Positions 7,877 to 40,658 of a stretch of 56,917 nucleotides of DNA are shown piece by piece. Each line of letters opens with the position of its first letter. The stretch's first letter is position 1. Below the pieces are notes generated by a model, which saw nothing but the letters and a program-made list of their open reading frames with translations, was not told the origin of the DNA and ran no database searches. The stretch comes from a virus (Duplodnaviria > Caudoviricetes), in the IMG/VR virus record IMGVR_UViG_3300035660_000009, positions 1 through 56,917 of that record. The stretch is one strand, 5' to 3'. The translations under genes and the position numbers were made by a program.

Positions 7877-8546
7877 CTAACGAAACCCCTTCACCACCCT
7901 GCTTCAAGAGTCTCCTCAAAACCTCCCTGTCCAACCCGGTCAACTTCCCAATCAAGAGAGTCCTCTCCTGCACCTTTTCGCCGACTGCGACGAGTCCCTT
8001 CGCACCCGACATCGCACCCTTCAGGATGTTGACCAGTTGGACGAAGAATTCAGACGAACCAGTGCTCCTCAGACTAAGTATACGTTCGAGGAACTCGGAC
8101 TCCCTAGTCAGGGTCTCGGCGAGGTGCTTCTGTAAGTCCACCAACTGCTCACTAGTGAAACCCCTAACCGAGGTGGGGTCGAGTTTTCCCACCAACGCTG
8201 CGTCGAGGTTCGCCAGCGCGGGTCCGAGTTGTGCAATCCTCATAACCTTATCGAGGGCAACCGAGATGAGTGTCAACCTGAGTTTCACCTCTTGCTCGGT
8301 CATCGCGTCCGCGAGGGTCGAGACGGCTTGGGTCCTCTCGGGTGAACCCAGTTTGTCGACCAACGCGAGGAGGCCCCTAAGGGTACCCATCGCGAGGGTG
8401 ACACTCTCTGGTGGTCCCCTCTGGGTAGGATGTTTGTAGCGAGTGTGGCGACCCAGTGCTTGGGTCCCGTGGCATGTGTAACCACACCCCTCAACGGGGC
8501 ACTTCACCAGTGGTCTTGTTGCCTTCTGTTGCAATCCGTTCACCAC
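7869..8546 (-). CDS. putative terminase small subunit with N-terminal C2H2 zinc finger
   Basis: Directly upstream of terL; helical; CPVEGC...HTRYKH. Confidence 0.5.
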   Translation of the reverse strand: MVNGLQQKATRPLVKCPVEGCGYTCHGTQALGRHTRYKHPTQRGPPESVTLAMGTLRGLLALVDKLGSPERTQAVSTLADAMTEQEVKLRLTLISVALDKVMRIAQLGPALANLDAALVGKLDPTSVRGFTSEQLVDLQKHLAETLTRESEFLERILSLRSTGSSEFFVQLVNILKGAMSGAKGLVAVGEKVQERTLLIGKLTGLDREVLRRLLKQGGEGVSLGE

Positions 8547-27125: not shown

Positions 27126-27464
27126 CTACCCCAACTCACTCACATCATGACCCAACTTCCGCAACCAGTCCGCTAACAGATGCCGGTGGCAGTGCTTGTC
27201 AGGTCCCTCCCAACAAAGGAGCACCATACCATCCCTTAGTAGACCCTCCACCCGACCAACCCCGAGGTGGTCGAGTTGAGTTACGTACTGCTTAGCGTAG
27301 TCCTCCCAACTAAGACCGTGGTACTTGTAATCCGCCACCAGGTCCCATGGTGGGGTAAGTTCCGGGATCGCTGGAAGGTTCGGAAGCCACCAGTTACGTC
27401 CCCCGATGGAGACAGCGTTCGGGTGCTTACCGTGCTTCGCGAAGTAACTGGTGCAGAGTTTCAC
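27126..27464 (-). CDS. DUF488-family protein
   Basis: TSYFA...VSI...L.PPW.L...Y...Y...L...VLLCWE....CHRHLLA.WL. Confidence 0.8.
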   Translation of the reverse strand: MKLCTSYFAKHGKHPNAVSIGGRNWWLPNLPAIPELTPPWDLVADYKYHGLSWEDYAKQYVTQLDHLGVGRVEGLLRDGMVLLCWEGPDKHCHRHLLADWLRKLGHDVSELG

Positions 27465-29968
27465 GTGATTCCCTTCACCTTTATGCTGTCGTCGCCCCAA
27501 CACCGACCGATGGTAGCCTCGGTAGGGATGACCTGGCCACCCAACTCGGGAATGGGTTTCTCGAGTTCCTCCTTCACGATCTCCGCAGTGTCCACAAGCT
27601 CGTCCTCGGGGCACTCACCGTGCCACGCGTCGTGGTGGCTTATCAACAAGCGACCCTTTAGCTTATACTTCCTCAACCTCTCCGCGATCCGAATGGCACC
27701 CAATCCGAGGGCGTCGTTGGCAGGCGACTGGATAGTAACGTTTACCGCCATGCGATACATTTCGTTCAGCGCCCTTCGAAAGTCCCCGAGAACCTCCTTC
27801 GAGTGCCTCCGTTCCTCGAGTGCCTTCTTGAGCATTGGTGCAGCGTAGAGTCTCCGCTTTCTCCCGAACGGAGAGACGATTATCCCCCCGGAGTCCACTA
27901 TCGCTCTAGTCTTGGCAAAGTGAGCAGCCACACCCTTGAAGAGGCTGAAGTAGGAGTCGATGTACTTTTGCGCCTCCCCCTCGGAACACCCCAAGTCCTC
28001 CGCCAACCCGTACGCCGTCTCGCCATAGTTCAACCCGAAGACCACAAACTTCGCGAAGTACCGTTGCTCCTTGGTAACCAACTCTGGAGGGATGCCATAC
28101 TTCTGCCCAGCAACACGCATGTGGACGTCTATCTTGACAACCTTCCCGTCAGGGAGTTGGACCTCTGGTGGGTGGAGCAACATATCGAGGAGTGTGTCAT
28201 CCGGTGCGACCTTCGCCTCCACGTAGAGTTCCGCCTGCTGGTAGTCGAAACTCAGGAACACCCACTCCTCGGTCGCGGCGAAGATCCTCCTGAAGGTTGC
28301 CTGTTCGGGGTCATCAGTGTCCCTCTTGATGTTCTGTATCGCTGGGTCCTCACTCGACAAGCGGCCCGTGACGGCACCGTGAAGCTTCCACCTTGGGTGG
28401 ACTCTCCCATCCGACCGGACGTGTTTGAGGATTCCTTCATTTCCGTTCATCCCCCTCAAATAGGTCCCGATGTCGTGTGCAATCTGTGTGGCTTTGATGA
28501 GTTCCCCCGCAACCGGGTGGACCTTCTTCAACTCGGTCAACGCGGCGGCATCCGTGGTGGGGTTTCCCTTCGGGTTGGACACACAAGGAGGGTTTCGTCT
28601 CACGATGGGGAGCTTCAACTTGTTGAACAACACGTCCACCCTCTGCTGGGGTGACCGAATGTCGAACTCACACCCCGCTGCTTCGTACACCTTCTTGACC
28701 TGGTCACTGTAGCGAGCCATGTAGAGTTCGTGGTACTCGTTCAGGGTGTCCATGTTGATCCTGATCCCGTACCACTCCGCGTCGGCCATGACCCTCGCGT
28801 ATGGGAGGGTGATCCGGTTGTGGACCTTCAGGACGTCCTCGGTAACTGCGTCCCTGAGGACCGCACGAGAAACCCTGTAACCCACGTCCGCGTCCTTTGA
28901 TGAATATTCCCAAAGTTTGTCGTCGGGAACGTTGCTCGCACCACCCTTCTTCCTCATCTCGGGAACGTCTTTGTACTCCCCACTCACGTCGGTGTACCAA
29001 CCAGAGAGGAAGTCGAGTCCATGGGGGAGGTTCTCGTCCACCAGGTGGTGTAACAACATGGAGTCCACCACGAGACCTTCCATCTCGATCCCAAAGGACC
29101 CCCGGAACATGAGTCTGTCGAACTGCTGACCATTCTGCATCGCTTTCGGTGTATCACCCTCGAGGAACCTCTTCAGAGCACCAACCACGCGAACCTTGTC
29201 GTCGGGAGACCAGACCTCCCTACCTTGGTACCCCACAATAGGTACCGCCCACCCCGTACCCTCCCTATTGGAGAAGCTCACGCAGACCACTTTGTCGGAC
29301 AAACAGTCGAACCCGGTGGTCTCGGAGTCGACCTCACAGAAGTCTATTGTGGAGTCCGAGAGTCTCCTCAACACCCACTCGACCTCCTCGGGTGTCCGAC
29401 AGACGGAGTACTTGGTCTCGATCTGGTGGTACCCCTCACGACAGATCCTAAGAGCAAGGGAGAGGTCCCTACGAAGGGGCAACTCATCCTGCCACCTACG
29501 GAGGGCACTCGCGGGGTGGAGTGTGGGGATGAAGTAGACACCGGGGAACTCGTCTGACGTCCTCACACTCCCCCTAACCTTTGTGATCCCCGACCTCCCA
29601 ACCCTAAGGACGGAGTGAGCAGCGAAGTTTCCCATCAGGACGACCACCTTGGGGTTCAACCGTCTGATGTCGTCCACCAGGTGGGGTCGGCATGCATCAA
29701 TCTCCTCATCGGTGGGGTCTCTGTTACTAGGAGGACGACACCGTAGAATGTTTGCGACGGGAACGTCTTCCCTCCTGATACTAACCCACCCGAGGACCCT
29801 GTTCAACAACACACCCGCGTCGCCAGCAAAGTTCCGCCCAGTCCTGTCCTCCTCCCAACCGGGAGCCTCCCCGACCAACATCAGACCTAACCGGCACTCG
29901 TCACCGTCACACGGGATACAGTTCCTCTGTGCTTTGTCGAAGAGTTGGCACTTGGTGCAAATGGGCAT
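27461..29968 (-). CDS. polA: family A DNA polymerase with N-terminal family-4 uracil-DNA glycosylase domain (SPO1-like architecture)
   Basis: UDG4 motifs C..C, VGEAPG.EE..G..F, CRPP.NR.P, HP; 3'-5' exonuclease DSETTG; polymerase motifs TGRLSS..P..QNI, DYQQAEL, R..AK...FG..YG, HD. Confidence 0.93.
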   Translation of the reverse strand: MPICTKCQLFDKAQRNCIPCDGDECRLGLMLVGEAPGWEEDRTGRNFAGDAGVLLNRVLGWVSIRREDVPVANILRCRPPSNRDPTDEEIDACRPHLVDDIRRLNPKVVVLMGNFAAHSVLRVGRSGITKVRGSVRTSDEFPGVYFIPTLHPASALRRWQDELPLRRDLSLALRICREGYHQIETKYSVCRTPEEVEWVLRRLSDSTIDFCEVDSETTGFDCLSDKVVCVSFSNREGTGWAVPIVGYQGREVWSPDDKVRVVGALKRFLEGDTPKAMQNGQQFDRLMFRGSFGIEMEGLVVDSMLLHHLVDENLPHGLDFLSGWYTDVSGEYKDVPEMRKKGGASNVPDDKLWEYSSKDADVGYRVSRAVLRDAVTEDVLKVHNRITLPYARVMADAEWYGIRINMDTLNEYHELYMARYSDQVKKVYEAAGCEFDIRSPQQRVDVLFNKLKLPIVRRNPPCVSNPKGNPTTDAAALTELKKVHPVAGELIKATQIAHDIGTYLRGMNGNEGILKHVRSDGRVHPRWKLHGAVTGRLSSEDPAIQNIKRDTDDPEQATFRRIFAATEEWVFLSFDYQQAELYVEAKVAPDDTLLDMLLHPPEVQLPDGKVVKIDVHMRVAGQKYGIPPELVTKEQRYFAKFVVFGLNYGETAYGLAEDLGCSEGEAQKYIDSYFSLFKGVAAHFAKTRAIVDSGGIIVSPFGRKRRLYAAPMLKKALEERRHSKEVLGDFRRALNEMYRMAVNVTIQSPANDALGLGAIRIAERLRKYKLKGRLLISHHDAWHGECPEDELVDTAEIVKEELEKPIPELGGQVIPTEATIGRCWGDDSIKVKGIT

Positions 29969-29994
29969 CGGGGTCAACCCTCCCCATCTTGGGG

Positions 29995-30081
29995 TGGACC
30001 GGTGGGTGGGATTTGAACCCACATCCCACGGTTGCTCGTGCACTCATTACCGTGTGCGTTAACCAATTTCGCCACCACCGG
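29995..30081 (-). tRNA. tRNA-like RNA with 18-nt anticodon loop (tRNA-Cys-like?)
   Basis: Acceptor CCGGTGG/CCACCGG followed by T-CCA; D arm GCG-AAATTGGTTAA-CGC; anticodon stem CACGG/CCGTG; T arm GTGGG-TTCAAAT-CCCAC. Confidence 0.75.
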
Positions 30082-30820
30082 GATCCAACCTACCTCGAAT
30101 GATCGCAGCACGGGTGGGGTCCTTTTCAACCACAACACAAGACCTCTCACCCACGTTCTTCACCGCAACAGCGAACGACCCAACTCCACCGAATGCCTCG
30201 AGGAGTCGGGAACCGGGTCTGGTAAACCCACGCGCGATCCACTCCATCAATGCGGAGGGTTTCTGCGCTCGACAGATCATCTTCCCGTCAACCCTCACCC
30301 TCTCGCTCTCGGAGGTCATCGGGAAGGACACGACATCCCGACACTGCTTGCCACCATTCCAACTCTTCAACCAGTGGTAGTCCATATACCAACCACCACC
30401 CTTAGAGAACCAGAGGAGGTACTCGTGTGTGTGCATCAACAACTTGGCGGACATGTTGGGGATTGCGTTCGTCTTGAGCCACACGATGTTGTGTAGGTGC
30501 TTCAACCCACACCCCTTCAGTTCCGACAAGAGTGTGTCAAGGTGGTGATGTGTGGTACTCACCACCACACTCCCACCCGGGGACAGACATGAGGCAACCC
30601 ACCTCACCCACTTGCAGGTGAAACGGGTGTAGTCCTCCTCACTGGCGAAAGTGTCGTATGAGGTATCAGGTGGCACTTGGTAGACACCCATCTTCCCGAA
30701 ATCGATGGGTCGTGACAAGTGACTGATCCCGTAAGGGGGGTCCGCGTAGATGAAGTCGAACACCCCCAGTGTCGGGAGGACGGTCAGAAGGTCACCCTCG
30801 ACAACTTGGTGTTCCGCCAC
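30059..30820 (-). CDS. site-specific DNA methyltransferase (N4C/N6A, beta class)
   Basis: DPPY near the N-terminus, IVW.K.N, QKP..L..I and F.G.GS near the C-terminus. Confidence 0.9.
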   Translation of the reverse strand: MAEHQVVEGDLLTVLPTLGVFDFIYADPPYGISHLSRPIDFGKMGVYQVPPDTSYDTFASEEDYTRFTCKWVRWVASCLSPGGSVVVSTTHHHLDTLLSELKGCGLKHLHNIVWLKTNAIPNMSAKLLMHTHEYLLWFSKGGGWYMDYHWLKSWNGGKQCRDVVSFPMTSESERVRVDGKMICRAQKPSALMEWIARGFTRPGSRLLEAFGGVGSFAVAVKNVGERSCVVVEKDPTRAAIIRGRLDPGGGEIG

Positions 30821-32546: not shown

Positions 32547-33191
32547 TCACGATCGGGTAACAACTTCCTCCTCCGACCAGACAACGAACGTTACTCCATT
32601 CTGCCTACACCACAGTTTTCCAGCGTGAAGTTTCAGATGCTTCCGCTCAAGTTCCCATCCCGCTGACACCTCGATCAACTCACGTCTCCCGGAAAGGTAC
32701 GTGACGAGAATGTCGGGAATGTATCTATGGTGAGAACCATCATCTCGGGTGTACGGGATCGAGAACGGTTCAGGTGTAAAGGAGGAAACGGTCTCGTCAG
32801 TTTCCAACCTTTGGTACGCGAGCAACTCATAGGACGATCGATAGTGGAAACACTTTCCGTTCTTCACGGAATCGAAGTAGCCACTCTTACCTCTGTGTTC
32901 AGGGTGGAGTTTGCCTGCAAGGATAAGTCGAACCTTTGCCTCAGACACACGCGCACGTGCGCATAATTGAGACATCGGATTCCTACCACCCCGAATCTTC
33001 GCCTTCACCTCCTCACGCTTCATTGGATTCTTATCACCACACACCGATGGGCGTGGTTTTCCCTTTTGCGTCTCACCACTCTTCCGAGAGACGTCGGATC
33101 GCTTCATTGGGTTGTTGTTGCCACGGATCGATGGACGAGGACCTACAGCGTTCTTGTTGCCACGCATCGACAGGCGTCGCTTCTCATTCAT
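32547..33191 (-). CDS. NUMOD3 + TnsA-like endonuclease-fold protein (copy 2)
   Basis: Three NPMK-type repeats; YRSSYEL...YIPDILV...IEVS...FVVWSE. Confidence 0.8.
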   Translation of the reverse strand: MNEKRRLSMRGNKNAVGPRPSIRGNNNPMKRSDVSRKSGETQKGKPRPSVCGDKNPMKREEVKAKIRGGRNPMSQLCARARVSEAKVRLILAGKLHPEHRGKSGYFDSVKNGKCFHYRSSYELLAYQRLETDETVSSFTPEPFSIPYTRDDGSHHRYIPDILVTYLSGRRELIEVSAGWELERKHLKLHAGKLWCRQNGVTFVVWSEEEVVTRS

Positions 33192-33234
33192 ACTAGCACA
33201 CCACGAACAGTGCGTCAGGAGAAGGCATAGTCGT

Positions 33235-33438
33235 TCACCAACCCATCGCTTTTGACTCGCGAACGTGCTCTTCCTGACCACCGGGTTGAGCACGCAACTC
33301 TTTCATCCGTTGCAGCCAATAGGCACCCGTCTCACCCTGGAATATCGGATCACCCACAGGTACGAAGCGAACATGGTGAAGCAAATCCGCGTAAGGCAAC
33401 GAATCAATGTACTGCTTCTTCGCTGGCGTGAGATCCAT
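33235..33438 (-). CDS. hypothetical protein
   Basis: IDSL.Y.DLL...RF.P.G.PIFQGETG.YW; GGAGG RBS. Confidence 0.65.
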   Translation of the reverse strand: MDLTPAKKQYIDSLPYADLLHHVRFVPVGDPIFQGETGAYWLQRMKELRAQPGGQEEHVRESKAMGW

Positions 33439-33505
33439 CTGCCACCTCCACGGGTGTGGGAAGAGTCACGACATGCCGCTCACCGCGCTCACGACGAACA
33501 GTGGG

Positions 33506-34141
33506 TTAAGTGGTGAGTTCCCCATGGTCAACCCGAGCGTTACCGAAGACCAGAGCGTTACCGAAGACCAGAGCGTTACCGGAGACCTGAGCGTTACCGT
33601 GAACCAGAGCGTTACCGGAGACCAGAGCGTTACCGTAAACCTGAGCGTCACCGGAGACCTGAGCGTCACCGGAGACCAGAGCGTTACCGGAGACCTGAGC
33701 GTCACCGGAGACCAGAGCGTTACCGTAAACCTGAGCGTCACCGGAGACCTGAGCGTCACCGAAGACCCGAGCGTCACCGAAGACCCAAGCGTTACCGTAA
33801 ACCTGAGCGTCACCGGAGACCTGAGCGTTACCGTAAACCTGAGCGTCACCGGAGACCTGAGCGTCACCGTAGACCAGAGCGTTACCGTAGACCTGAGCGT
33901 TACCGTAGACCTGAGCGTCACCGTAGACCCGAGCGTTCACACCGACGAAGGCAGTTTCGGCGACCTTCGCGGTCTCCGCGATCCAACCGCCACCGTTCGG
34001 GTGGTGGTGGTACACAACACCGTCGACCGCCTGGGTTTGGTCCCACCAGGAGTCGGGTACGGACACACCCGTATCGCTCACCCACCTAGCTACTATCCGA
34101 GACATGACTTTCTCCTCCTTGGTGAGATCCGGATATCGCAT
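33506..34141 (-). CDS. left-handed beta-helix hexapeptide-repeat protein
   Basis: H.NGGGW.A.TA.V followed by ~22 G[ND]A.V[YSF] repeats. Confidence 0.8.
   Translation of the reverse strand: MRYPDLTKEEKVMSRIVARWVSDTGVSVPDSWWDQTQAVDGVVYHHHPNGGGWIAETAKVAETAFVGVNARVYGDAQVYGNAQVYGNALVYGDAQVSGDAQVYGNAQVSGDAQVYGNAWVFGDARVFGDAQVSGDAQVYGNALVSGDAQVSGNALVSGDAQVSGDAQVYGNALVSGNALVHGNAQVSGNALVFGNALVFGNARVDHGELTT
33533..33937. repeat. 18-bp coding tandem repeat (~22 units)
   Basis: Recurring gagcgt(t/c)accg(g/t/a)agacc(t/a) units. Confidence 0.9.
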
Positions 34142-34199
34142 CCGTCACTCCCTCAAACGAGCGACCATCATCTCGAGCATCTCCCGGTTGTAACCCAAC

Positions 34200-34535
34200 C
34201 TATATCATCCTCTCGAGCTTCTCGCGCATCTTCTCCCACGACTTGGTCTCCTGTAGTGGGTACTTTCCTAACATAGCAACACAGAGGTCGAACCCCATAC
34301 TCGCACCCTCCATACCACGGGTGAAACCGTGGGGGTTGCGGTCGTTGCCGACTGTCCCCTTGATGTAACCGAAGAGCGACTGGCACAACGACAGTGCCTC
34401 AACCAGTTGCGCCACCTGCACACGATACTTACACTTGTGCTCCTTGGTGGTCGGCTCAAGCACCTCTTCCATCTTCGTTCCGGGTCGCACCAACTCGGGG
34501 GAGAGACCTTTTACCACCTGGTCGGTCATTACCAT
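34200..34535 (-). CDS. hypothetical protein
   Basis: AGGAGG RBS and promoter motif upstream. Confidence 0.55.
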   Translation of the reverse strand: MVMTDQVVKGLSPELVRPGTKMEEVLEPTTKEHKCKYRVQVAQLVEALSLCQSLFGYIKGTVGNDRNPHGFTRGMEGASMGFDLCVAMLGKYPLQETKSWEKMREKLERMI

Positions 34536-34585: not shown

Positions 34586-35260
34586 CTATTTCTTCGTGAC
34601 CAGTGGGTCGGGCGCACCCACAACAGCGAACGCGTTCGCCCTGTACACGCAACTCTCACACTTCCCGCAGGGTCGGTCACCGTTCAAATAGCAAGACCAA
34701 GTGAGTTGGAAAGGAACACCCAACTCGAGACCCACCTTGACGATGTCCCTCTTGGGGACACCGCTCCACGGGAGGACGAGGTCGGGTGGGGTAGCGCTCG
34801 CACCAGTTCCCACCCTAACGGTCTCAGTGAGGGACCGGTAGAACTCAGGGGTGCAGTCCGGGAACCCTTTACAGTCGTCCTGGTGTGCACCGATGACGAC
34901 CACACTCACACCCAAACTCTCCGCGAACGCACACGCGACGGACATGAACACGAGGTTCCTCAGCGGGACGATGTAGTACGAGGGTCCCTCCCTGTCGTTC
35001 TCCTCCACCTTCACGGTATCCTTCCCCCGGGTGAGGGGTGAGACGAACACCCGCTTGAGGACGTTCAGGTCGAGGACCGTATGGGAGATCACACCCAGAG
35101 CCTCTCCCACTTTCAGGGCACACTTCACCTCCCGCCGTGCCCTCTGCCCGTACAGGATGGAGAGTCCAACCACGTCATACCCCTTCGACTTCATCCAGTA
35201 AGCTACTGTGGAGGAGTCCACTCCCCCACTCATCAGAACCACCGCTTGCGGGTTCGTCAT
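34586..35260 (-). CDS. queC: 7-cyano-7-deazaguanine (preQ0) synthase
   Basis: SGGVDS, YGQR, VP.RN, PDC.PEF and TWSCY....PCG.C.SC. Confidence 0.95.
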   Translation of the reverse strand: MTNPQAVVLMSGGVDSSTVAYWMKSKGYDVVGLSILYGQRARREVKCALKVGEALGVISHTVLDLNVLKRVFVSPLTRGKDTVKVEENDREGPSYYIVPLRNLVFMSVACAFAESLGVSVVVIGAHQDDCKGFPDCTPEFYRSLTETVRVGTGASATPPDLVLPWSGVPKRDIVKVGLELGVPFQLTWSCYLNGDRPCGKCESCVYRANAFAVVGAPDPLVTKK

Positions 35261-35264
35261 TGGG

Positions 35265-36371
35265 TTACCTTTCCACTACGTACACGAGTTCCCTGAACGG
35301 TTTCGAGTTCACACTCGAGACCACGTCGTAGAACGTGTGGTACTTACACCGAGGACCGAACTCCGAGAGGAGAACCTCCTCCAACTGGTCACCAGGTGGG
35401 TAGTTGGTCGACTGGGTAGAGAGAATGAGCCTGTTGTAGTGCCCGAGCGCCTTCTTCCAGATCGCGAGGATCTTCGGGACGATGTCCTCCTTCGTGGTGA
35501 ACTGGTGCTTCTCCAGTGGCTTCTGGAGGAGGACACTCGAGATGTCCCTGCTGAAGAAGTCGTAGGTGTCAACGGGAGCACCGGTTGTCCACGGCCAAGC
35601 GAAGTCCATGTAGAGGGTGTCGTGTTCACCCGGGAGGGACACAAAGTCCTCCGCATCCAGGTTGAACGCCTCACCCTCAGGTTGGTCGCGAAGGATTGCC
35701 GCTTGGAGGAGACCACGCCTTTTGAGGAGTCGGTTGTGGAACACCACGAGAGTGGCCTCTCTGCACCAGTTCTTGTCGTAACACATCCCCCTGTAGGTGT
35801 AACCCGACACAAGCGTCCCCGCCAGTGCGGCGAGCGTCAGAGGGTCGTCGTGTGCGAGCGCAAGGGTGGCGACACCGTCGATGTAGGTGGCCACGTCGTA
35901 GGGGAACAACTCGAGGGACTTGACGAACCCGGGCACGGGTACGACCCGTTCGGGATCGATGGAGACCATGTTGGGGGGTTCGTGGTTCGCAACCACTACC
36001 GCACGGGAGACGAAATAGCTCATGTGGCACCAATCGTTGGTCCTAACACGGAGACCCATCCTCTTGGCCAGGTACATCGGTGCGTTGCTACCGGAGGTCG
36101 CATCGCTGATGGCATGCATGTCAGGGTGGCGATGAACCAGGAGTTTCAGCAGTGGTTCGATGTACCTCCCCTGGGACCCGAAGTAGGGTGACGGGAGGGG
36201 GGAGTGGGTCCGGGCGTAACACATGTAGGACCAGTGGTCGGGTCCCACTATCGCGTCGTGTTCCTGGATAAGCCTCTTCCGCGTGGCACCGTCAGTGGAG
36301 GTGAGGAACTCGTGGTGCAACCTATCATGTTCCTCCTGTCGGTGGGTCAACATCAACTCGCGCTCGAACAT
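35265..36371 (-). CDS. Dam/D12-fold SAM-dependent methyltransferase-like protein with non-canonical motif IV (DFAW)
   Basis: PYFGSQ (motif X), DATSGS (I), V.TND (II), FNLDA.DF (III), DTLYMDFAW (IV); AAGGAG RBS before MFERE. Confidence 0.65.
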   Translation of the reverse strand: MFERELMLTHRQEEHDRLHHEFLTSTDGATRKRLIQEHDAIVGPDHWSYMCYARTHSPLPSPYFGSQGRYIEPLLKLLVHRHPDMHAISDATSGSNAPMYLAKRMGLRVRTNDWCHMSYFVSRAVVVANHEPPNMVSIDPERVVPVPGFVKSLELFPYDVATYIDGVATLALAHDDPLTLAALAGTLVSGYTYRGMCYDKNWCREATLVVFHNRLLKRRGLLQAAILRDQPEGEAFNLDAEDFVSLPGEHDTLYMDFAWPWTTGAPVDTYDFFSRDISSVLLQKPLEKHQFTTKEDIVPKILAIWKKALGHYNRLILSTQSTNYPPGDQLEEVLLSEFGPRCKYHTFYDVVSSVNSKPFRELVYVVER

Positions 36372-36708
36372 CAGGTGACTCCTTACCAAAGGACTCCTCA
36401 TAGATCGCCAACGTGCTCGCGGCGACACCAACAAGTAAACGAGTGGCCTCGATAGGATCCCCACGACCCACAACACCCAACGCGAGAGCACACTCCACAA
36501 ACCTTCCCACCTGCCCATCCAACATGCAGCACCAACCCGCAAGGGTGAGGACTGGTACACACTCCTTAACCCGACGTTGCCTCTCCCGGAGGACGAGCTC
36601 GAGAAAGGCTGCCCGAGGAGGGGGTGGTAGGAGGGAGGCCCAGTGGTTACCCGCAACCTTGGTCAACTCCTCAAGGTGGGTTGCACGGTCAACTCTCTCT
36701 GGAGCCAT
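36325..36708 (-). CDS. hypothetical protein within the deazaguanine cluster
   Basis: 127-aa helical ORF overlapping both neighbours. Confidence 0.5.
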   Translation of the reverse strand: MAPERVDRATHLEELTKVAGNHWASLLPPPPRAAFLELVLRERQRRVKECVPVLTLAGWCCMLDGQVGRFVECALALGVVGRGDPIEATRLLVGVAASTLAIYEESFGKESPDVRARVDVDPPTGGT

Positions 36709-38447
36709 TGGATATTCTCCACCGCGAGTCTCACCACCTGTGGTGTCATCATGACACCGTAGTCCAACTTCCCCTTCGGTTTCGGCGAGAGGCGCGACAT
36801 CTGCTTGTACACCAACGCGGTCGCGATTGGGAAGGATGTGTCAATACTCCTAATGAACGGGTACATCGCGTACCACCTCAACGCTCTCGGGTCGCTAAGG
36901 CCCAACAGGTGGTGGGGTATACCCCTCTTCAGGTACCCAGTACCCACGAGGTGATGGATCGACCTTAGACGTGCTGCCTCCATCGGGTTCATCGGACCGA
37001 AGAAGTCCCACGGCATGGGATCCTCAAGGGTCCAGATGTAGGAGAGCCCTATACAGGAGACCCCAGGGAGTTCGCTCAACTCCCTGTAACAATCCACCCA
37101 CTCGGAGAACGTACTACCCTGAGGGCAAACCTGCACCACAATGTTCCCACCCAACCGGTTCAAGCACGCCTTCGACCCGATAACGGTCGCCTTTGAGTCG
37201 CCGATCACGTCGGGAAGAACGACCTCGTGTGGCTTCAGTTCCTCCACGAGGCGGACCAAATCCTCAACGGAGAACAGGTCGCCCTCGAACGCGCCGTTAT
37301 CTAAGACGCAATTGTGCGTGAAAACACCAGAAGACAGTGCAAAATTGTGGTGTTTCTGCACCACTAGGCAATAGACTTCCTCCCGTTCGTTGAGATGCCG
37401 AATGGAGACAACTGTGTGGTTCCAATTGTGGCTACCTTTCGCAAGTTGGTTTCCCAACATCCTCACTCTACACTTTTCGCGAAACGCAGCAGACCGGACC
37501 CCGAGTGCTCTACCCAGGAGAGCCTTCTGAACAAGTAACCCCATCTTTTTCCGCTCCCTCAGATCGGTGTAGAACTGGCACATAAACCTCGAATGCGCCT
37601 CTCGCCTTTCCCGAGTCCAAGAACGGGAGTGTGCTTCCCGTGTACACTTCGTGGCCTTGCGACCCAGCATCCGCTGCCTACACACCTCACAAAATTCGGT
37701 TGTGCGCTTCCGTCCACGGTTCGCTCTACCAACCTTGCGCGACCTCTCACGTGCCTCGGGTAGTTGCATGTGTATTCTTGTATGCTCCTCCACTAAAGTC
37801 CACACAAGGTTCTCAGGGTCGTCGTTCAGGGGGTTGAAGTCTTTGTGGTGACGGATCGCCTTCACACCTTTCAGGTTATCGGGTTTCCGTCCCGCGGCAA
37901 CAGCGAAGAAGGGGAACCACTTACCCGTGTGGAGGGACTGGACAAATCGGTGGATTTTGTCCCCCATTGGTCCGTGACCAACCTTCCGGTACAGTGGCAT
38001 CAGGGACGTGCCAGGAGCGAGGTCCTTTGCCTCCCTATAGCTGCCGTCACGAAGCATCCATGGGTGGTCTGGGGTACAGCGGACCTTCTCTCCGTTGTCC
38101 AGAGTGACCTCGACCAGTTCAGCGTTCCCCCGAGTTTTTCGAGCAGTCGCACGACCGGGGACGATCTTCCCGGTCTCGTGGTCGTAGGAGTAGACCCAGA
38201 ACGGGTCCCTTCCTACGAGGTCCTTGATGGGAACCTCGGTTCCGTTGACGAGGGAGACCTTGGTACCCCCAGTGAGACAATACTTCTCCAGAGAGACCTG
38301 CTCCTTATAGAAACCCGCGTACTCAGGGTTCGCCCTGTAAACCCCGGGGATCACGAAATTGTAGTCGGTGAAGGTCGCGAGGATATGCTGGTAGTGGACA
38401 GGTAACTCAGTCGCGACTGCTACCCGGTTAAGTCGGGGGAACTTCAT
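36663..38447 (-). CDS. TGT/DpdA-like TIM-barrel transglycosylase interrupted by an intein
   Basis: Extein motifs VLDNGAFE, LPDV, V.PQG, IGLS, HHLLG and RSIDTS; located among the que genes. Confidence 0.75.
   Translation of the reverse strand: MKFPRLNRVAVATELPVHYQHILATFTDYNFVIPGVYRANPEYAGFYKEQVSLEKYCLTGGTKVSLVNGTEVPIKDLVGRDPFWVYSYDHETGKIVPGRATARKTRGNAELVEVTLDNGEKVRCTPDHPWMLRDGSYREAKDLAPGTSLMPLYRKVGHGPMGDKIHRFVQSLHTGKWFPFFAVAAGRKPDNLKGVKAIRHHKDFNPLNDDPENLVWTLVEEHTRIHMQLPEARERSRKVGRANRGRKRTTEFCEVCRQRMLGRKATKCTREAHSRSWTRERREAHSRFMCQFYTDLRERKKMGLLVQKALLGRALGVRSAAFREKCRVRMLGNQLAKGSHNWNHTVVSIRHLNEREEVYCLVVQKHHNFALSSGVFTHNCVLDNGAFEGDLFSVEDLVRLVEELKPHEVVLPDVIGDSKATVIGSKACLNRLGGNIVVQVCPQGSTFSEWVDCYRELSELPGVSCIGLSYIWTLEDPMPWDFFGPMNPMEAARLRSIHHLVGTGYLKRGIPHHLLGLSDPRALRWYAMYPFIRSIDTSFPIATALVYKQMSRLSPKPKGKLDYGVMMTPQVVRLAVENIQWLQRELTVQPTLRS
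37311..38279 (-). mobile_element. intein (323 aa) with HNH endonuclease and NUMOD3-like repeats
   Basis: N-terminal CLTGGTKV, block B CTPDHPW, HHKDFNPLNDDPENL, C-terminal VYCL.V..HHNFAL..GVFTHN|C. Confidence 0.92.
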
Positions 38448-38793
38448 GCGTGAGACCCTCCTCCGACAGGTACTTGTGGTGGACCAACCAGATAGCCAAC
38501 AGTGCGGCATACCCCGCGATGTCCATGACAGAGTCCGCAAGGTCTGCTTTCACCCTCGTCATGTTGGTGTCACCGCTAACGGGGAGGTTGGCCCTGAGAT
38601 CGTAACCACGATTGCCGATCGTAGCCTTAATCCTCGCACACTTGTCCCTGATGAACGCGATGAAGTCCTCCAGTTCCATGTCGAGGTACGCGTCACCCCT
38701 CGACACATCCCTCTCAACGAGCACCTTCACGACGGTGGCGAAGAACTCACCCGACTTCCGACCGAGTTCGTCGGTCGTGATCCTCGTAGCCAT
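38428..38793 (-). CDS. nucleotide-modification-associated domain 1 (DUF1599/MazG-like) protein
   Basis: R...RGD.Y...I.DK.ARI...DS..DIAGYA.L. Confidence 0.7.
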   Translation of the reverse strand: MATRITTDELGRKSGEFFATVVKVLVERDVSRGDAYLDMELEDFIAFIRDKCARIKATIGNRGYDLRANLPVSGDTNMTRVKADLADSVMDIAGYAALLAIWLVHHKYLSEEGLTHEVPPT

Positions 38794-38839: not shown

Positions 38840-39433
38840 CTACTCAACACGTAACTTGAGGAGGTCCAGAAACTCACTTTTAGCACTGGGGTCCTTGAGA
38901 AACACACCCTTGACCGCGGACGTGACGAACGACGAACCCGGCTTCCTCGCCCCCCTGCACGAAATACATACGTGCTCCGCAACCAGGACTACCATCACCC
39001 CCATAGGTTTGAGCGAGGACATCAAGTGGGATGCGACCAACTCCGTCAGTCGCTCCTGAGTCTGGGGCATAGAGGCAAAGTAGTCAACAACACGTGCGGG
39101 TTTGCTGATGCCCACCACCCTCCCTTTCGGGATGTACCCAATGTGCGCCCTCCCGCGGAAGGGAATCATGTGGTGTGAACACAAACTGACGAATGGGATG
39201 TCCCTCAACATGAGGAGCTGTTCATGGGAGCTCTTGAACGCTGAGATGTGTGGAGGAGTTGACCTCACCCCACGGGTCAACTCCAACCACATCCTGACGA
39301 CCCTCCTCGGGGTGTGCACAAGGTCGAGTTCGTCGTCGGGTAGGTCTTTCTCGGAGAGGCCGAGCGCACAGAGCGCCTTCGCAACGTAACTCCGTGCCAA
39401 GACCTCATTGGATTCCTTCCGCCTTTCCATCAC
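38840..39433 (-). CDS. folE: GTP cyclohydrolase I
   Basis: TPRRV, SLCSHH.IPF.G, G.SK..R, QERLT and AEH.C..CRG. Confidence 0.95.
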   Translation of the reverse strand: MMERRKESNEVLARSYVAKALCALGLSEKDLPDDELDLVHTPRRVVRMWLELTRGVRSTPPHISAFKSSHEQLLMLRDIPFVSLCSHHMIPFRGRAHIGYIPKGRVVGISKPARVVDYFASMPQTQERLTELVASHLMSSLKPMGVMVVLVAEHVCISCRGARKPGSSFVTSAVKGVFLKDPSAKSEFLDLLKLRVE

Positions 39434-40131
39434 TATCTCCCTCTCTCGCTCCCCCAGATGAGTTTATGCAACTGGACACCAAACCGCAGGTCGAACCTCC
39501 GGGTGAGGCCATGTTCGTCACCCAAAAGGAACTCGCTCAACCACCGTGCGGGTTTGCCTCCCACCACGTGAAAGTACACAGTGGGTCTACACGTGTGGAC
39601 CCCCAGAAGGGACCTCAACATGCTCACGGACGCAAGCACGTCGTCCTCGTTCCTACACACAAACTTGAGTGTGTCGGTCGGTTGGAGGTCCCTATAGTTT
39701 CCCCCGATCATGTGCTCATTCATCCCTGACGAGGGGACCTTGTAGTCTACCACCAGGTCGATCCTCCAGGAGTTCTTCTTCCTCGCGTCGAGGACCCAGT
39801 CCACGGGGCACGCACCGTTAGTCTCGATCGAGACAGTGGGATGGGAGGGGAAACCCATTAACGAAGAGAACAACTGGAGGAGTTCTTCGCGGGGTTGCAG
39901 CAAAGGCTCTCCACCGGTCAAGCAACAATGACGAGGGTAGGGGTCCAGTCTTCCCACCCTATCCATGATCGCGGAGACCGTCATAGCAGCACTCTCAGCG
40001 TGGGACCGTGCGTATACCGCGTCACAATAATCACAGCAAAGATTACACCCGGAGAACCGTATGAAGGTCGTTACTGCTCCCACGGTCTGGCACTCACCCT
40101 GGAGGCTTCGGAAGATCTCGCAGACCCTCAT
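39433..40131 (-). CDS. queE: 7-carboxy-7-deazaguanine synthase (radical SAM)
   Basis: EIF.SLQGE, FIRF.GCNL.C.YCD, LTGGEP, IETNG and QLHK.IW. Confidence 0.95.
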   Translation of the reverse strand: MRVCEIFRSLQGECQTVGAVTTFIRFSGCNLCCDYCDAVYARSHAESAAMTVSAIMDRVGRLDPYPRHCCLTGGEPLLQPREELLQLFSSLMGFPSHPTVSIETNGACPVDWVLDARKKNSWRIDLVVDYKVPSSGMNEHMIGGNYRDLQPTDTLKFVCRNEDDVLASVSMLRSLLGVHTCRPTVYFHVVGGKPARWLSEFLLGDEHGLTRRFDLRFGVQLHKLIWGSERGR

Positions 40132-40658
40132 TTGAAGTACTCCGCGTAGGACTCGGTGGGATGAAGCTGCTCGTATACACGAATGTAGTCGACCTTCAAC
40201 CCTCTCTTCTCCCCCACCTCGAGGGGTTGTATCTCGAAGTCTGCCCTGTCAAAGCACCACTTTGCAAGGTTCTCCGCAGTTGGGTTGGACATGTTGTGGA
40301 GTGTTACCACACCCAACTCCATAACACTACCAAGAGGTGTGAGTAAACCCAACGCTTCGCCCAAAACCTTCACACACTTGCCACACCCCGACGTGGGGTC
40401 GAGGTCAGCAATCTTGTTGATACCGTCCCTATCGGGTTGGCCGAGAACCAGGGTGTGGTCAAAACCCTTCTCGATCTGGTGGAGGATCCTCTCCTTAAGC
40501 CAACCGAAGTCCACCACCATACCGAGAGCGTTAAGGGTCTCACACGAAACGCTCACGTCAATCCGGCAAGTGTGACCGTGAAGGAATCTGCACTTACCCT
40601 CGTGACCACGGATCCGGTGTGCCATGTCGATGTAGCAAGCCTTGACAATACGGTACAT
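40128..40658 (-). CDS. queD: 6-carboxy-tetrahydropterin synthase
   Basis: AHR...H.GKC..LHGH, GMVVDFG, FDH and NPTAEN.A. Confidence 0.95.
   Translation of the reverse strand: MYRIVKACYIDMAHRIRGHEGKCRFLHGHTCRIDVSVSCETLNALGMVVDFGWLKERILHQIEKGFDHTLVLGQPDRDGINKIADLDPTSGCGKCVKVLGEALGLLTPLGSVMELGVVTLHNMSNPTAENLAKWCFDRADFEIQPLEVGEKRGLKVDYIRVYEQLHPTESYAEYFK

Follow-up and report, generated by a model that had tools for sequence, protein, structure and literature searches.

A Dam-fold protein family with a D[PF]AW motif IV is linked to 7-deazaguanine genes of phages and may act on the deazaguanine base

The window analyzed here is the whole 56,917-nt IMG/VR record IMGVR_UViG_3300035660_000009, assigned to a virus of the Caudoviricetes, and the gene in question is a Dam-like open reading frame (ORF) in positions 35265-36371 of its minus strand, situated inside a cluster of 7-deazaguanine genes. 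Its product, P0001 (relatives are numbered P0002, P0005 etc., and fetched loci L001-L037), is predicted to have the complete fold of the Dam, or D12-class, DNA methylases with DFAW in the place of motif IV, and it belongs to a family that is strongly linked to genes of 7-deazaguanine synthesis. We propose, with a probability of roughly 0.3, that P0001 is an S-adenosylmethionine (SAM)-dependent N-transferase of the Dam/D12 fold, its pocket being retargeted from adenine to 7-deazaguanine, and that it acts on DNA after a DpdA3-like transglycosylase has inserted the base.

The relationship of P0001 to the Dam/D12 enzymes is visible only through its relatives, the family profile and the predicted fold. 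The protein itself has no match in Pfam, PHROG or NCBIfam, even at E<=1 (Pfam) or 0.1. The D12-class model PF02086 does not recognize it, while 22 of 50 relatives match this model at E<=0.1 (best 9.3e-13); PF22555 (DAM-like-phage1) gives no match for P0001 either and detects 3 of the 50 relatives at E<=0.1, the member from locus L014 scoring 21.1 bits, under the gathering score of 27 bits. The profile built from the alignment of these 50 relatives (A1) aligns to T4 Dam with E 6e-4, pairing YFGsQ with YTGNK, DltaGg with DLFCGG, tNDi with ANDI, and YmDpA with YVDPP, and due to this motif-by-motif correspondence the assignment of motifs X, I, II and IV goes beyond a chance resemblance.

When the AlphaFold2 (AF2) model of P0001 (pLDDT 90.7, pTM 0.89) is compared with PDB by Foldseek, the top matches are to E. 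coli Dam (4rtj, E 2.6e-7), T4 Dam and DpnM. In the VIA-align superpositions most of each chain is covered, namely 225 of 244 residues for E. coli Dam, 217 of 249 for T4 Dam and 229 of 258 for DpnM, and with 217-229 residues aligned the match extends to the helical insert that separates motif III from motif IV. The motifs follow the order of alpha-group class-I methyltransferases (X, I, II, III, inserted target-recognition domain, IV). The original prediction had recognized motifs X, I, II and III of a D12-class enzyme in this order, with LYMDFAW standing where motif IV is expected; all of them can be located in the translation of P0001 (Table 1), and the predicted structure agrees with that reading. 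For the catalytic core, the highest VIA-align Z values belong to guanine-N2 methylases (RsmD 16.7, TGS1 16.6, Trm11 15.9), and the guanine-N2 RNA methylases together (RsmD, TGS1, Trm11, TrmN/Trm14) span Z 16.7-15.6 over 162-178 residues; still, cores of guanine-N2, m6A (N6-methyladenine) and Gln-N5 enzymes are nearly tied, within about 2 Z. Hence the modelled fold supports N-methylation chemistry, and the target atom is not fixed by it.

Motif IV of the D12 class is defined as (D/N)PP(Y/F), and motif X as Y-x-G-x-K (YTGNK in T4 Dam), and P0001 deviates in both, having DFAW and YFGSQ, respectively. Judging from the aligned sequences, DFAW is a conserved trait of the family and not a sign of decay. 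The family set comprises P0001 and 77 proteins, representatives at 50% identity, found by phmmer at E<=1e-3 (26 of them at E<=1e-10). Motif IV has the form [DN]xAW[PA][WFYG] in 70 of these 78 sequences (DPAW in 38, DFAW in 28), three more have DFDWPW or DFPWPW, and DPPY occupies this position in P0071 alone, a marginal 820-aa match. The altered motif IV, noted originally in a single protein, is thus a real signature. Y63, G65, Q67, G94, D113 and the C-terminal STQSTN-P are fixed features of the 50-row alignment. The residues aligned with the SAM motifs of Dam are kept and the base pocket is altered in one consistent way, and therefore the pattern is that of an active enzyme with a different substrate.

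The sole close homologue of P0001 among the 1.84 billion representative proteins searched with phmmer is P0002 (367 aa, 62% identity), its residues 1-367 aligning to residues 1-368 of P0001, that is, end to end; this alignment, together with the Shine-Dalgarno sequence, supports the start at 36371. The family has no name: among the 120 listed of the 152 matches in the 90% collection, the only label is 'hypothetical protein'. No match was found among 50,697 GenBank phage records, either by tblastn with five members (P0001, the L008 and L005 members, P0022 and P0016) or by blastn with the 7-kb cluster of the window. As a separate observation, residues 1-55 of P0001 (36207-36371, minus strand) form a two-helix N-terminal extension with conserved His positions, and this extension is present in a part of the family only, e.g. 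in P0005, P0009, P0011 and P0016.

To describe the genomic context of the family, loci were fetched by a pattern of the motif IV region (the 11-row alignment A2), blind to gene context, which yielded 8 IMG/VR and 12 JGI metagenome loci; in genome contigs the same pattern gave no relative among 399 candidate stretches. The que genes were detected by tblastn with the Que proteins of the window itself. At least one que gene lies within 10 kb in 13 of the 20 phage or metagenome loci, and four of the seven que-less loci are contigs of at most 2.9 kb. When the near-duplicates L001/2, L003/4, L007/8 and L010/11 are collapsed and only loci with several kilobases of flanking sequence are kept, nine loci are left, and six of them (L002, L004, L005, L008, L011, L019) carry FolE/QueD/QueE and QueC or Gat-QueC. 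The baseline is the GenBank frequency of QueC homologues, found anywhere in 338 of the 50,697 phage records (0.67%); a locus search with the ordinary N6_N4 methylase of the window gave no viral loci. The probability to observe six of nine by chance is about 1e-11, assuming independent loci and a transferable baseline.

The position of the Dam-like gene in these clusters is not constant, as it is located between DpdA and QueC in the window, QueE and FolE in L004, FolE and DpdA in L005, and Gat-QueC and QueD in L008. In the maximum-likelihood tree of 60 members the que-linked ones fall into four separate well-supported clades. Gat-QueC, comprised of GATase and QueC domains, is encoded in L002, L005, L008 and L011, and stand-alone QueC in the window and L004. 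Hence the family gene is co-located with folE, queD, queE, queC or gat-queC, and dpdA, as expected of an accessory gene of this pathway. The survey of neighbourhoods of DFAW homologues, suggested together with the original prediction, has thus shown that the family is strongly linked to 7-deazaguanine genes. Two side observations belong to these loci. L004 has two tandem QueC paralogues (3-536 and 481-1191, both on the minus strand; PF06508 E 6.6e-35 and 6.1e-43), and L003 has them likewise; in L019, a metagenome contig with a Dam-like gene, QueC and QueD are separated by a Vut_1/YhhQ-type transporter domain (about 7960-8235, plus strand).

In the window, the genes are ordered QueC, Dam-like, the intein-bearing gene of the tRNA-guanine transglycosylase (TGT) fold, and then FolE, QueE and QueD, and this module is flanked by a primase-helicase and a fusion of uracil-DNA glycosylase (UDG) with a family A DNA polymerase (PolA). 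The placement of the Dam-like gene between a DpdA-like gene and queC, claimed originally, is therefore correct, and so is the presence of a separate canonical DPPY methylase at 30059-30820 (ADPPYG; N6_N4_Mtase E 7e-25). QueC passes the NCBIfam equivalog TIGR00364 (7-cyano-7-deazaguanine synthase) with 180 bits against a cut-off of 150.3. In agreement with the original remark that neither queF nor Gat-QueC is visible, neither QueF nor a GATase domain, nor DUF6884 or a phosphoribosyltransferase (PRTase), was found in this 56.9-kb record, which CheckV estimates to be 34% complete. Three weak PF14489 matches, considered as QueF candidates in related records, were rejected as cross-matches inside FolE genes. 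Hutinet et al. 2019 (PMC6884629) report the association of Gat-QueC with dG+; by the rule stated there, the gene set of the window, lacking QueF, GATase and DUF6884, predicts dPreQ0.

The transglycosylase gene of the window has no Pfam TGT match. It is interrupted by an intein (Intein_splicing E 4.6e-21) with N- and C-terminal splicing regions and an HNH endonuclease, inserted directly ahead of the invariant LDNGAF motif. The C-extein falls into phrog_20335/19058, where the neighbours in L002 and L011 are placed too, and the gene following the Dam-like gene in L005 is a homologue of the window transglycosylase (hhalign probability 97.4%). For the L011 homologue, all 50 of the 50 best Foldseek matches of a low-confidence model (pLDDT 57) are tRNA-guanine transglycosylases. 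A tblastn match links the window gene to the 'DNA guanine transglycosylase' of the immuto phage, for which Cui et al. 2023 (PMC10516641) report DpdA3, the subfamily associated with complete replacement of G. Because of this match and this assignment, we infer that the window transglycosylase is DpdA3-like. Cui et al. 2023 also report that DpdA3 did not work in their E. coli tests. Genes of this type accompany the family in the window, L002, L005 and L011, and the transglycosylase of L008 is of the other type, phrog_887 DpdA, against which the profile of the window type gives a weak hhalign match (probability 2%). The model PF01702 (TGT) finds no DpdA in five related records, though at least two of them encode one, and thus it is too distant for these proteins; phmmer of the DpdA-like protein of L002 against PDB sequences gave no match.

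A further link to the pathway comes from a gene fusion. In L006 (9359-10990) a 543-aa protein combines an N-terminal DUF6884 domain (residues 5-151, E 4.4e-24) with a C-terminal Dam-like domain, and such a fusion occurs in two clusters that are 76% identical, the second protein being 563 aa long. The neighbours of the fusion gene in L006 are DUF932 and RecA, and no que gene was found in this 28.8-kb record. The preprint PMC11888242 assigns DUF6884 to DpdC, and DpdC is reported to turn preQ0-DNA into ADG-DNA in vitro (PMC10164549). According to the Pfam paper PMC11701544, the DUF6884 fold is YaaA-like and has a putative DNA-binding cleft, one member being modelled as flipping a base.

Since all contexts of the family share a base of the preQ0 type, we favour a SAM-dependent N-transferase specialised on 7-deazaguanine, and the full Dam architecture of P0001, the DUF6884 fusion and the precedent of DpdM (see below) argue for action on DNA after insertion. 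The analysis shows the predicted fold, the conservation of residues of the SAM and motif IV types, the family signature and the gene linkage; the use of SAM, the DNA substrate, the target atom and the biological role are proposed from these, as follows. FolE, QueD, QueE and QueC would make preQ0; the intein-bearing DpdA3-like transglycosylase would replace G by preQ0 in the DNA of the phage; next, the Dam-like enzyme would flip the inserted base out of the duplex and move a methyl group (less likely another SAM-derived group) onto an exocyclic nitrogen, most likely the N2 amine; and the doubly modified base would add to the protection of DNA against host nucleases. If this is the case, then with a DpdA3-like transglycosylase the modification could extend to the majority, or even all, of the G positions in the genome of the phage.

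The choice of the target atom differs from the one proposed originally. Transfer of a SAM-derived group to the deazaguanine side chain or another non-standard base had been suggested, and this prediction is supported in part, by the Dam fold, the conserved altered motif IV, the que linkage and the DUF6884 fusion; the side chain itself, however, is probably a nitrile without an amine in the window phage, as QueC passes its equivalog model and QueF, Gat and DUF6884 were not found. A nitrile offers no nitrogen for a methyl group, and hence the side chain is an unlikely target here. Moreover, members of the family are found both next to plain QueC and next to Gat-QueC, and thus its target is likely shared by preQ0 and G+. 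We infer the N2 amine, the only amine common to these two bases. It is possible, though far from assured, that the family makes a 7-deazaguanine derivative new to natural DNA bases (e.g. N2-methyl dPreQ0 or N2-methyl dG+) and that its gut clade, described below, represents a new preQ0-to-nucleotide pathway. The family product is a prediction, made from sequence, fold and gene linkage.

Several observations weigh against an enzyme that methylates deazaguanine in DNA. The family is rather acidic (median pI 6.2) and conserves few basic residues, an uncommon trait in a DNA methylase, and Gln stands in motif X in place of the Dam Lys. The structural neighbours do not separate guanine N2 from adenine N6. 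No DpdA was recognized in L004, where the 364-aa neighbour is not recognisably DpdA, and L014 has no informative neighbours. In 15 of 17 loci the gut clade is part of an operon of small-molecule enzymes, in which no nucleic-acid enzyme was seen. Finally, as the five members searched are unmatched among GenBank phages, no analyzed phage DNA bears on the product of the family.

The gut operon belongs to a derived clade of shorter proteins (about 298 aa), represented by 17 loci in metagenome-assembled genomes of gut Bacilli and Mycoplasmatota; one of these loci lies on a contig of 1.26 Mb. Around the Dam-like gene five families recur, every one of them in 15 of the 17 loci. One is a queuosine-precursor transporter, scoring 176 bits on TIGR00697 against a cut-off of 50.95, and the others are a purine-type PRTase, a WYL/HTH regulator, a dTMP-kinase-like protein and a radical SAM protein. 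A DegT aminotransferase is found in nine and Ham1 in seven of the loci, and QueC in L029 only. The operon is conserved in L036 (9379-15240) and in 14 more loci among L022-L037. In L036 it includes a MutT-like Nudix protein, homologues of which are clustered in 10 of the 17 loci, and its radical SAM protein (286 aa) is MoaA/twitch-like; the PRTase gene of this locus begins within the Dam-like gene. L013 likewise has a PRTase beside the Dam-like gene. Judging from this gene content, the operon looks like a pathway turning imported preQ0 into a modified nucleotide or nucleoside, and the combination of a preQ0-type transporter, PRTase, Nudix and kinase makes a free base or a nucleotide a possible substrate.

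Extended to the whole family, this leads to the closest competitor of the proposed function, in which the same chemistry takes place earlier, so that a free 7-deazaguanine base or nucleotide is methylated, or otherwise alkylated with SAM, and then passed to DpdA in phages or to PRTase in the gut operon. We regard this order of events as tentative in its own right, and as nearly as likely as action on DNA. Most contexts combine a source of a free preQ0-type base (QueC, Gat-QueC or a YhhQ-type transporter) with a user of the free base (DpdA or PRTase), and the close association of the Dam-like and PRTase genes in L036 and L013, the acidity of the family and the insert between motifs III and IV, which in the 50-row alignment is shortened in the gut clade and also in the sister clade from phages, all fit it. 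However, P0001 keeps the full Dam-type helical domain, the DUF6884 fusion partner belongs to a DNA-acting family, and DpdA would need to accept an altered base; no D12-fold enzyme is known to act on a free base. Precedents for chemistry at this earlier stage are HuiC, which O-methylates free preQ0, and the tubercidin pathway, where a PRTase and a Nudix hydrolase are reported to build 7-deazapurine nucleosides (PMC6112128).

An ordinary orphan m6A or m4C (N4-methylcytosine) DNA methylase with a divergent motif IV, serving as a second anti-restriction layer and having no chemical link to deazaguanine, is rather improbable. The Dam fold and the motif order would be expected of it, as would the 22 relatives that reach PF02086 and the location of the gene in a replication and modification module with another methylase, the UDG-PolA fusion, a helicase and a primase; moreover, D-x-A-W is close to the D-P-P-W/Y motif carried by known amino-methylases. 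On the other hand, such a methylase would leave unexplained why the family is tied to que genes, a DpdC-type domain and a preQ0 transporter, an association that is far above the 0.67% baseline and extends over four clades, and the gene resides inside que operons at shifting positions. The changes in motifs X and IV are fixed across the family, and the family was not found in the 50,697 GenBank phage records, although Dam-type methylases of the ordinary kind abound in them. Least probable is a non-methylating protein that binds a deazaguanine base, nucleotide or modified DNA as a carrier of preQ0 to DpdA or PRTase, a targeting subunit or a sensor, for although Gln replaces the motif-X Lys of Dam, pocket residues are altered, the gene adjoins the DpdA-like gene in the window and L005, and Hutinet et al. 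2019 (PMC6884629) suggest channelling of preQ0 to DpdA, the conservation of G94, D113, D239 and the motif-IV D256 is that expected of an active transferase, and the family is also present without any DpdA, in the gut operon.

Coordinates of the Dam-like gene, its motifs and the cluster genes are collected in Table 1. Several further genes of the window deserve mention. The UDG-PolA fusion (27461-30043, minus strand) has an N-terminal UDG domain (PF03167 E 6.7e-27) followed by 3'-5' exonuclease and polymerase domains; a 2026 paper (PMC13697223) ties UDG-polymerase fusions to phages with T-modified genomes, and here the fusion occurs in a phage carrying a G-modification cluster. A YdcK-type beta-solenoid repeat protein is encoded at 33506-34141 (minus strand; PF18836 E 1.8e-36), and the antisense ORF with SVTGD-like repeats at 33407-34276 (plus strand) is probably a by-product of this repeat gene. 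The protein encoded at 32547-33293 (minus strand), in which a series of repeated N-terminal G-x-x-N-P-M-(K/S) units is combined with a TnsA-like endonuclease domain at the C-terminus (PF08722 E 6.7e-11), may be a homing-type endonuclease. A 127-aa ORF at 36325-36708 (minus strand), a candidate gene only, spans the 291-nt spacer between the DpdA-like and Dam-like genes and overlaps the ends of both; it has no family match.

Table 1. Positions of the Dam-like gene, its motif equivalents and the 7-deazaguanine genes in the window
Feature	Position	Strand	Remarks
QueC	34586..35260	-	4 nt past the Dam-like stop; PF06508 E 3.9e-61
Dam-like ORF (P0001)	35265..36371	-	368 aa, no internal stop; end coordinate counts the stop codon
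Family motif LSTQSTNYP	35397..35423	-	Q320 in 49/50, N323 in 48/50, P325 in 50/50 relatives
Motif IV equivalent TLYMDFAWPW, residues 252-261	35589..35618	-	D256, A258, W259, P260, W261 each kept in 44-49/50
Motif III equivalent LDAEDF, residues 238-243	35643..35660	-	D239 in 38/50 relatives
Motif II equivalent TNDW, residues 111-114	36030..36041	-	D113 invariant, 50/50 relatives
Motif I equivalent DATSGS, residues 90-95	36087..36104	-	G94 invariant, 50/50 relatives
Motif X equivalent YFGSQGR, residues 63-69	36165..36185	-	Dam form Y-x-G-x-K; here Q67; Q in 43/50 relatives
Ribosome-binding site AAGGAG	36379..36384	-	Shine-Dalgarno 7 nt ahead of the ATG at 36371
DpdA3-like TGT-fold transglycosylase gene	36663..38540	-	intein about 37311-38279; true start probably ATG near 38447
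FolE (GTP cyclohydrolase I)	38840..39433	-	PF01227 E 8.6e-56
QueE (radical SAM)	39433..40131	-	best matches TIGR04349 E 2e-40 and TIGR03963 E 1e-39, both under curated cut-offs
QueD (PTPS family)	40128..40658	-	PF01242 E 1.8e-25

Enzymes that diversify deazaguanines are few and of unrelated folds (DpdC, DpdL, DpdM, DpdN, Gat-QueC, ArcS). The Dam-fold family with the D[PF]AWPW motif in que operons is a concrete candidate for a further step of hypermodification, and, if the proposed function is true, it would show a base-flipping adenine methylase that has been redirected to a different base. Such a modification might affect restriction, CRISPR cleavage and sequencing, and is a possible handle for labelling deazaguanine DNA; the gut-Bacilli operon, in turn, may point to a way of using queuosine precursors in the gut that has not been described yet. 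Eight 7-deazaguanine derivatives are reported in phage DNA by Cui et al. 2023 (PMC10516641). In the titles, abstracts and passages covered by our literature search, no D12/Dam-like protein was linked to deazaguanine clusters; the words 'methyltransferase' and 'methylase' have 0 occurrences in the text of Hutinet et al. 2019 (PMC6884629), as do D12, YhhQ, Nudix, phage and Bacilli in the preprint 10.64898/2026.04.15.718813. What appears new here, judging from the alignments and the modelled structure, is a family of the Dam fold that has a signature of its own and occurs in a pathway-specific context.

The closest functional precedent is DpdM, a DUF3109 protein whose metal motif is CxxxCxxCC and which is reported to modify inserted dPreQ1 in vivo (Cui et al. 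2023, PMC10516641). As in the case of P0001, its gene is an accessory one inside a phage FolE/QueD/QueE/QueC/DpdA cluster, and it sets the precedent for a methylase acting after insertion; unlike P0001, DpdM needs preQ1 and hence QueF, which was not found in the window. The possibility that P0001 is itself a DpdM was rejected, since P0001 has neither a DUF3109 match nor a CxxxCxxCC motif, and the folds are unrelated. DpdC (DUF6884) also acts on deazaguanine after its insertion into DNA, and its domain is fused to a family member in L006, but its fold is not that of P0001, its chemistry is a different one (nitrile hydration), and no DUF6884 was found in the window. HuiC of the huimycin pathway, described as a SAM-dependent O6-methyltransferase of free preQ0 (preprint 10.64898/2026.04.15.718813), resembles the proposed role of P0001 in methylating the preQ0 base with SAM, while it is of the PF08241 type, comes from an actinomycete secondary-metabolite cluster and yields an O-methyl rather than an N-methyl product.

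RsmD, TGS1, Trm11 and TrmN/Trm14 perform chemistry on the exocyclic N2 of guanine and resemble P0001 in the core; unlike P0001, these guanine-N2 methylases have no Dam-type helical insert, and their substrates are RNA. E. coli Dam, T4 Dam and DpnM share with P0001 the fold, the order of motifs X-I-II-III-helical insert-IV and the conserved aligned SAM-type residues. D12 methylases, however, are known from restriction-modification or orphan Dam contexts, while the family described here has D[PF]AW[PA]W as motif IV and YFGxQ as motif X, is acidic, and is tied to 7-deazaguanine genes.

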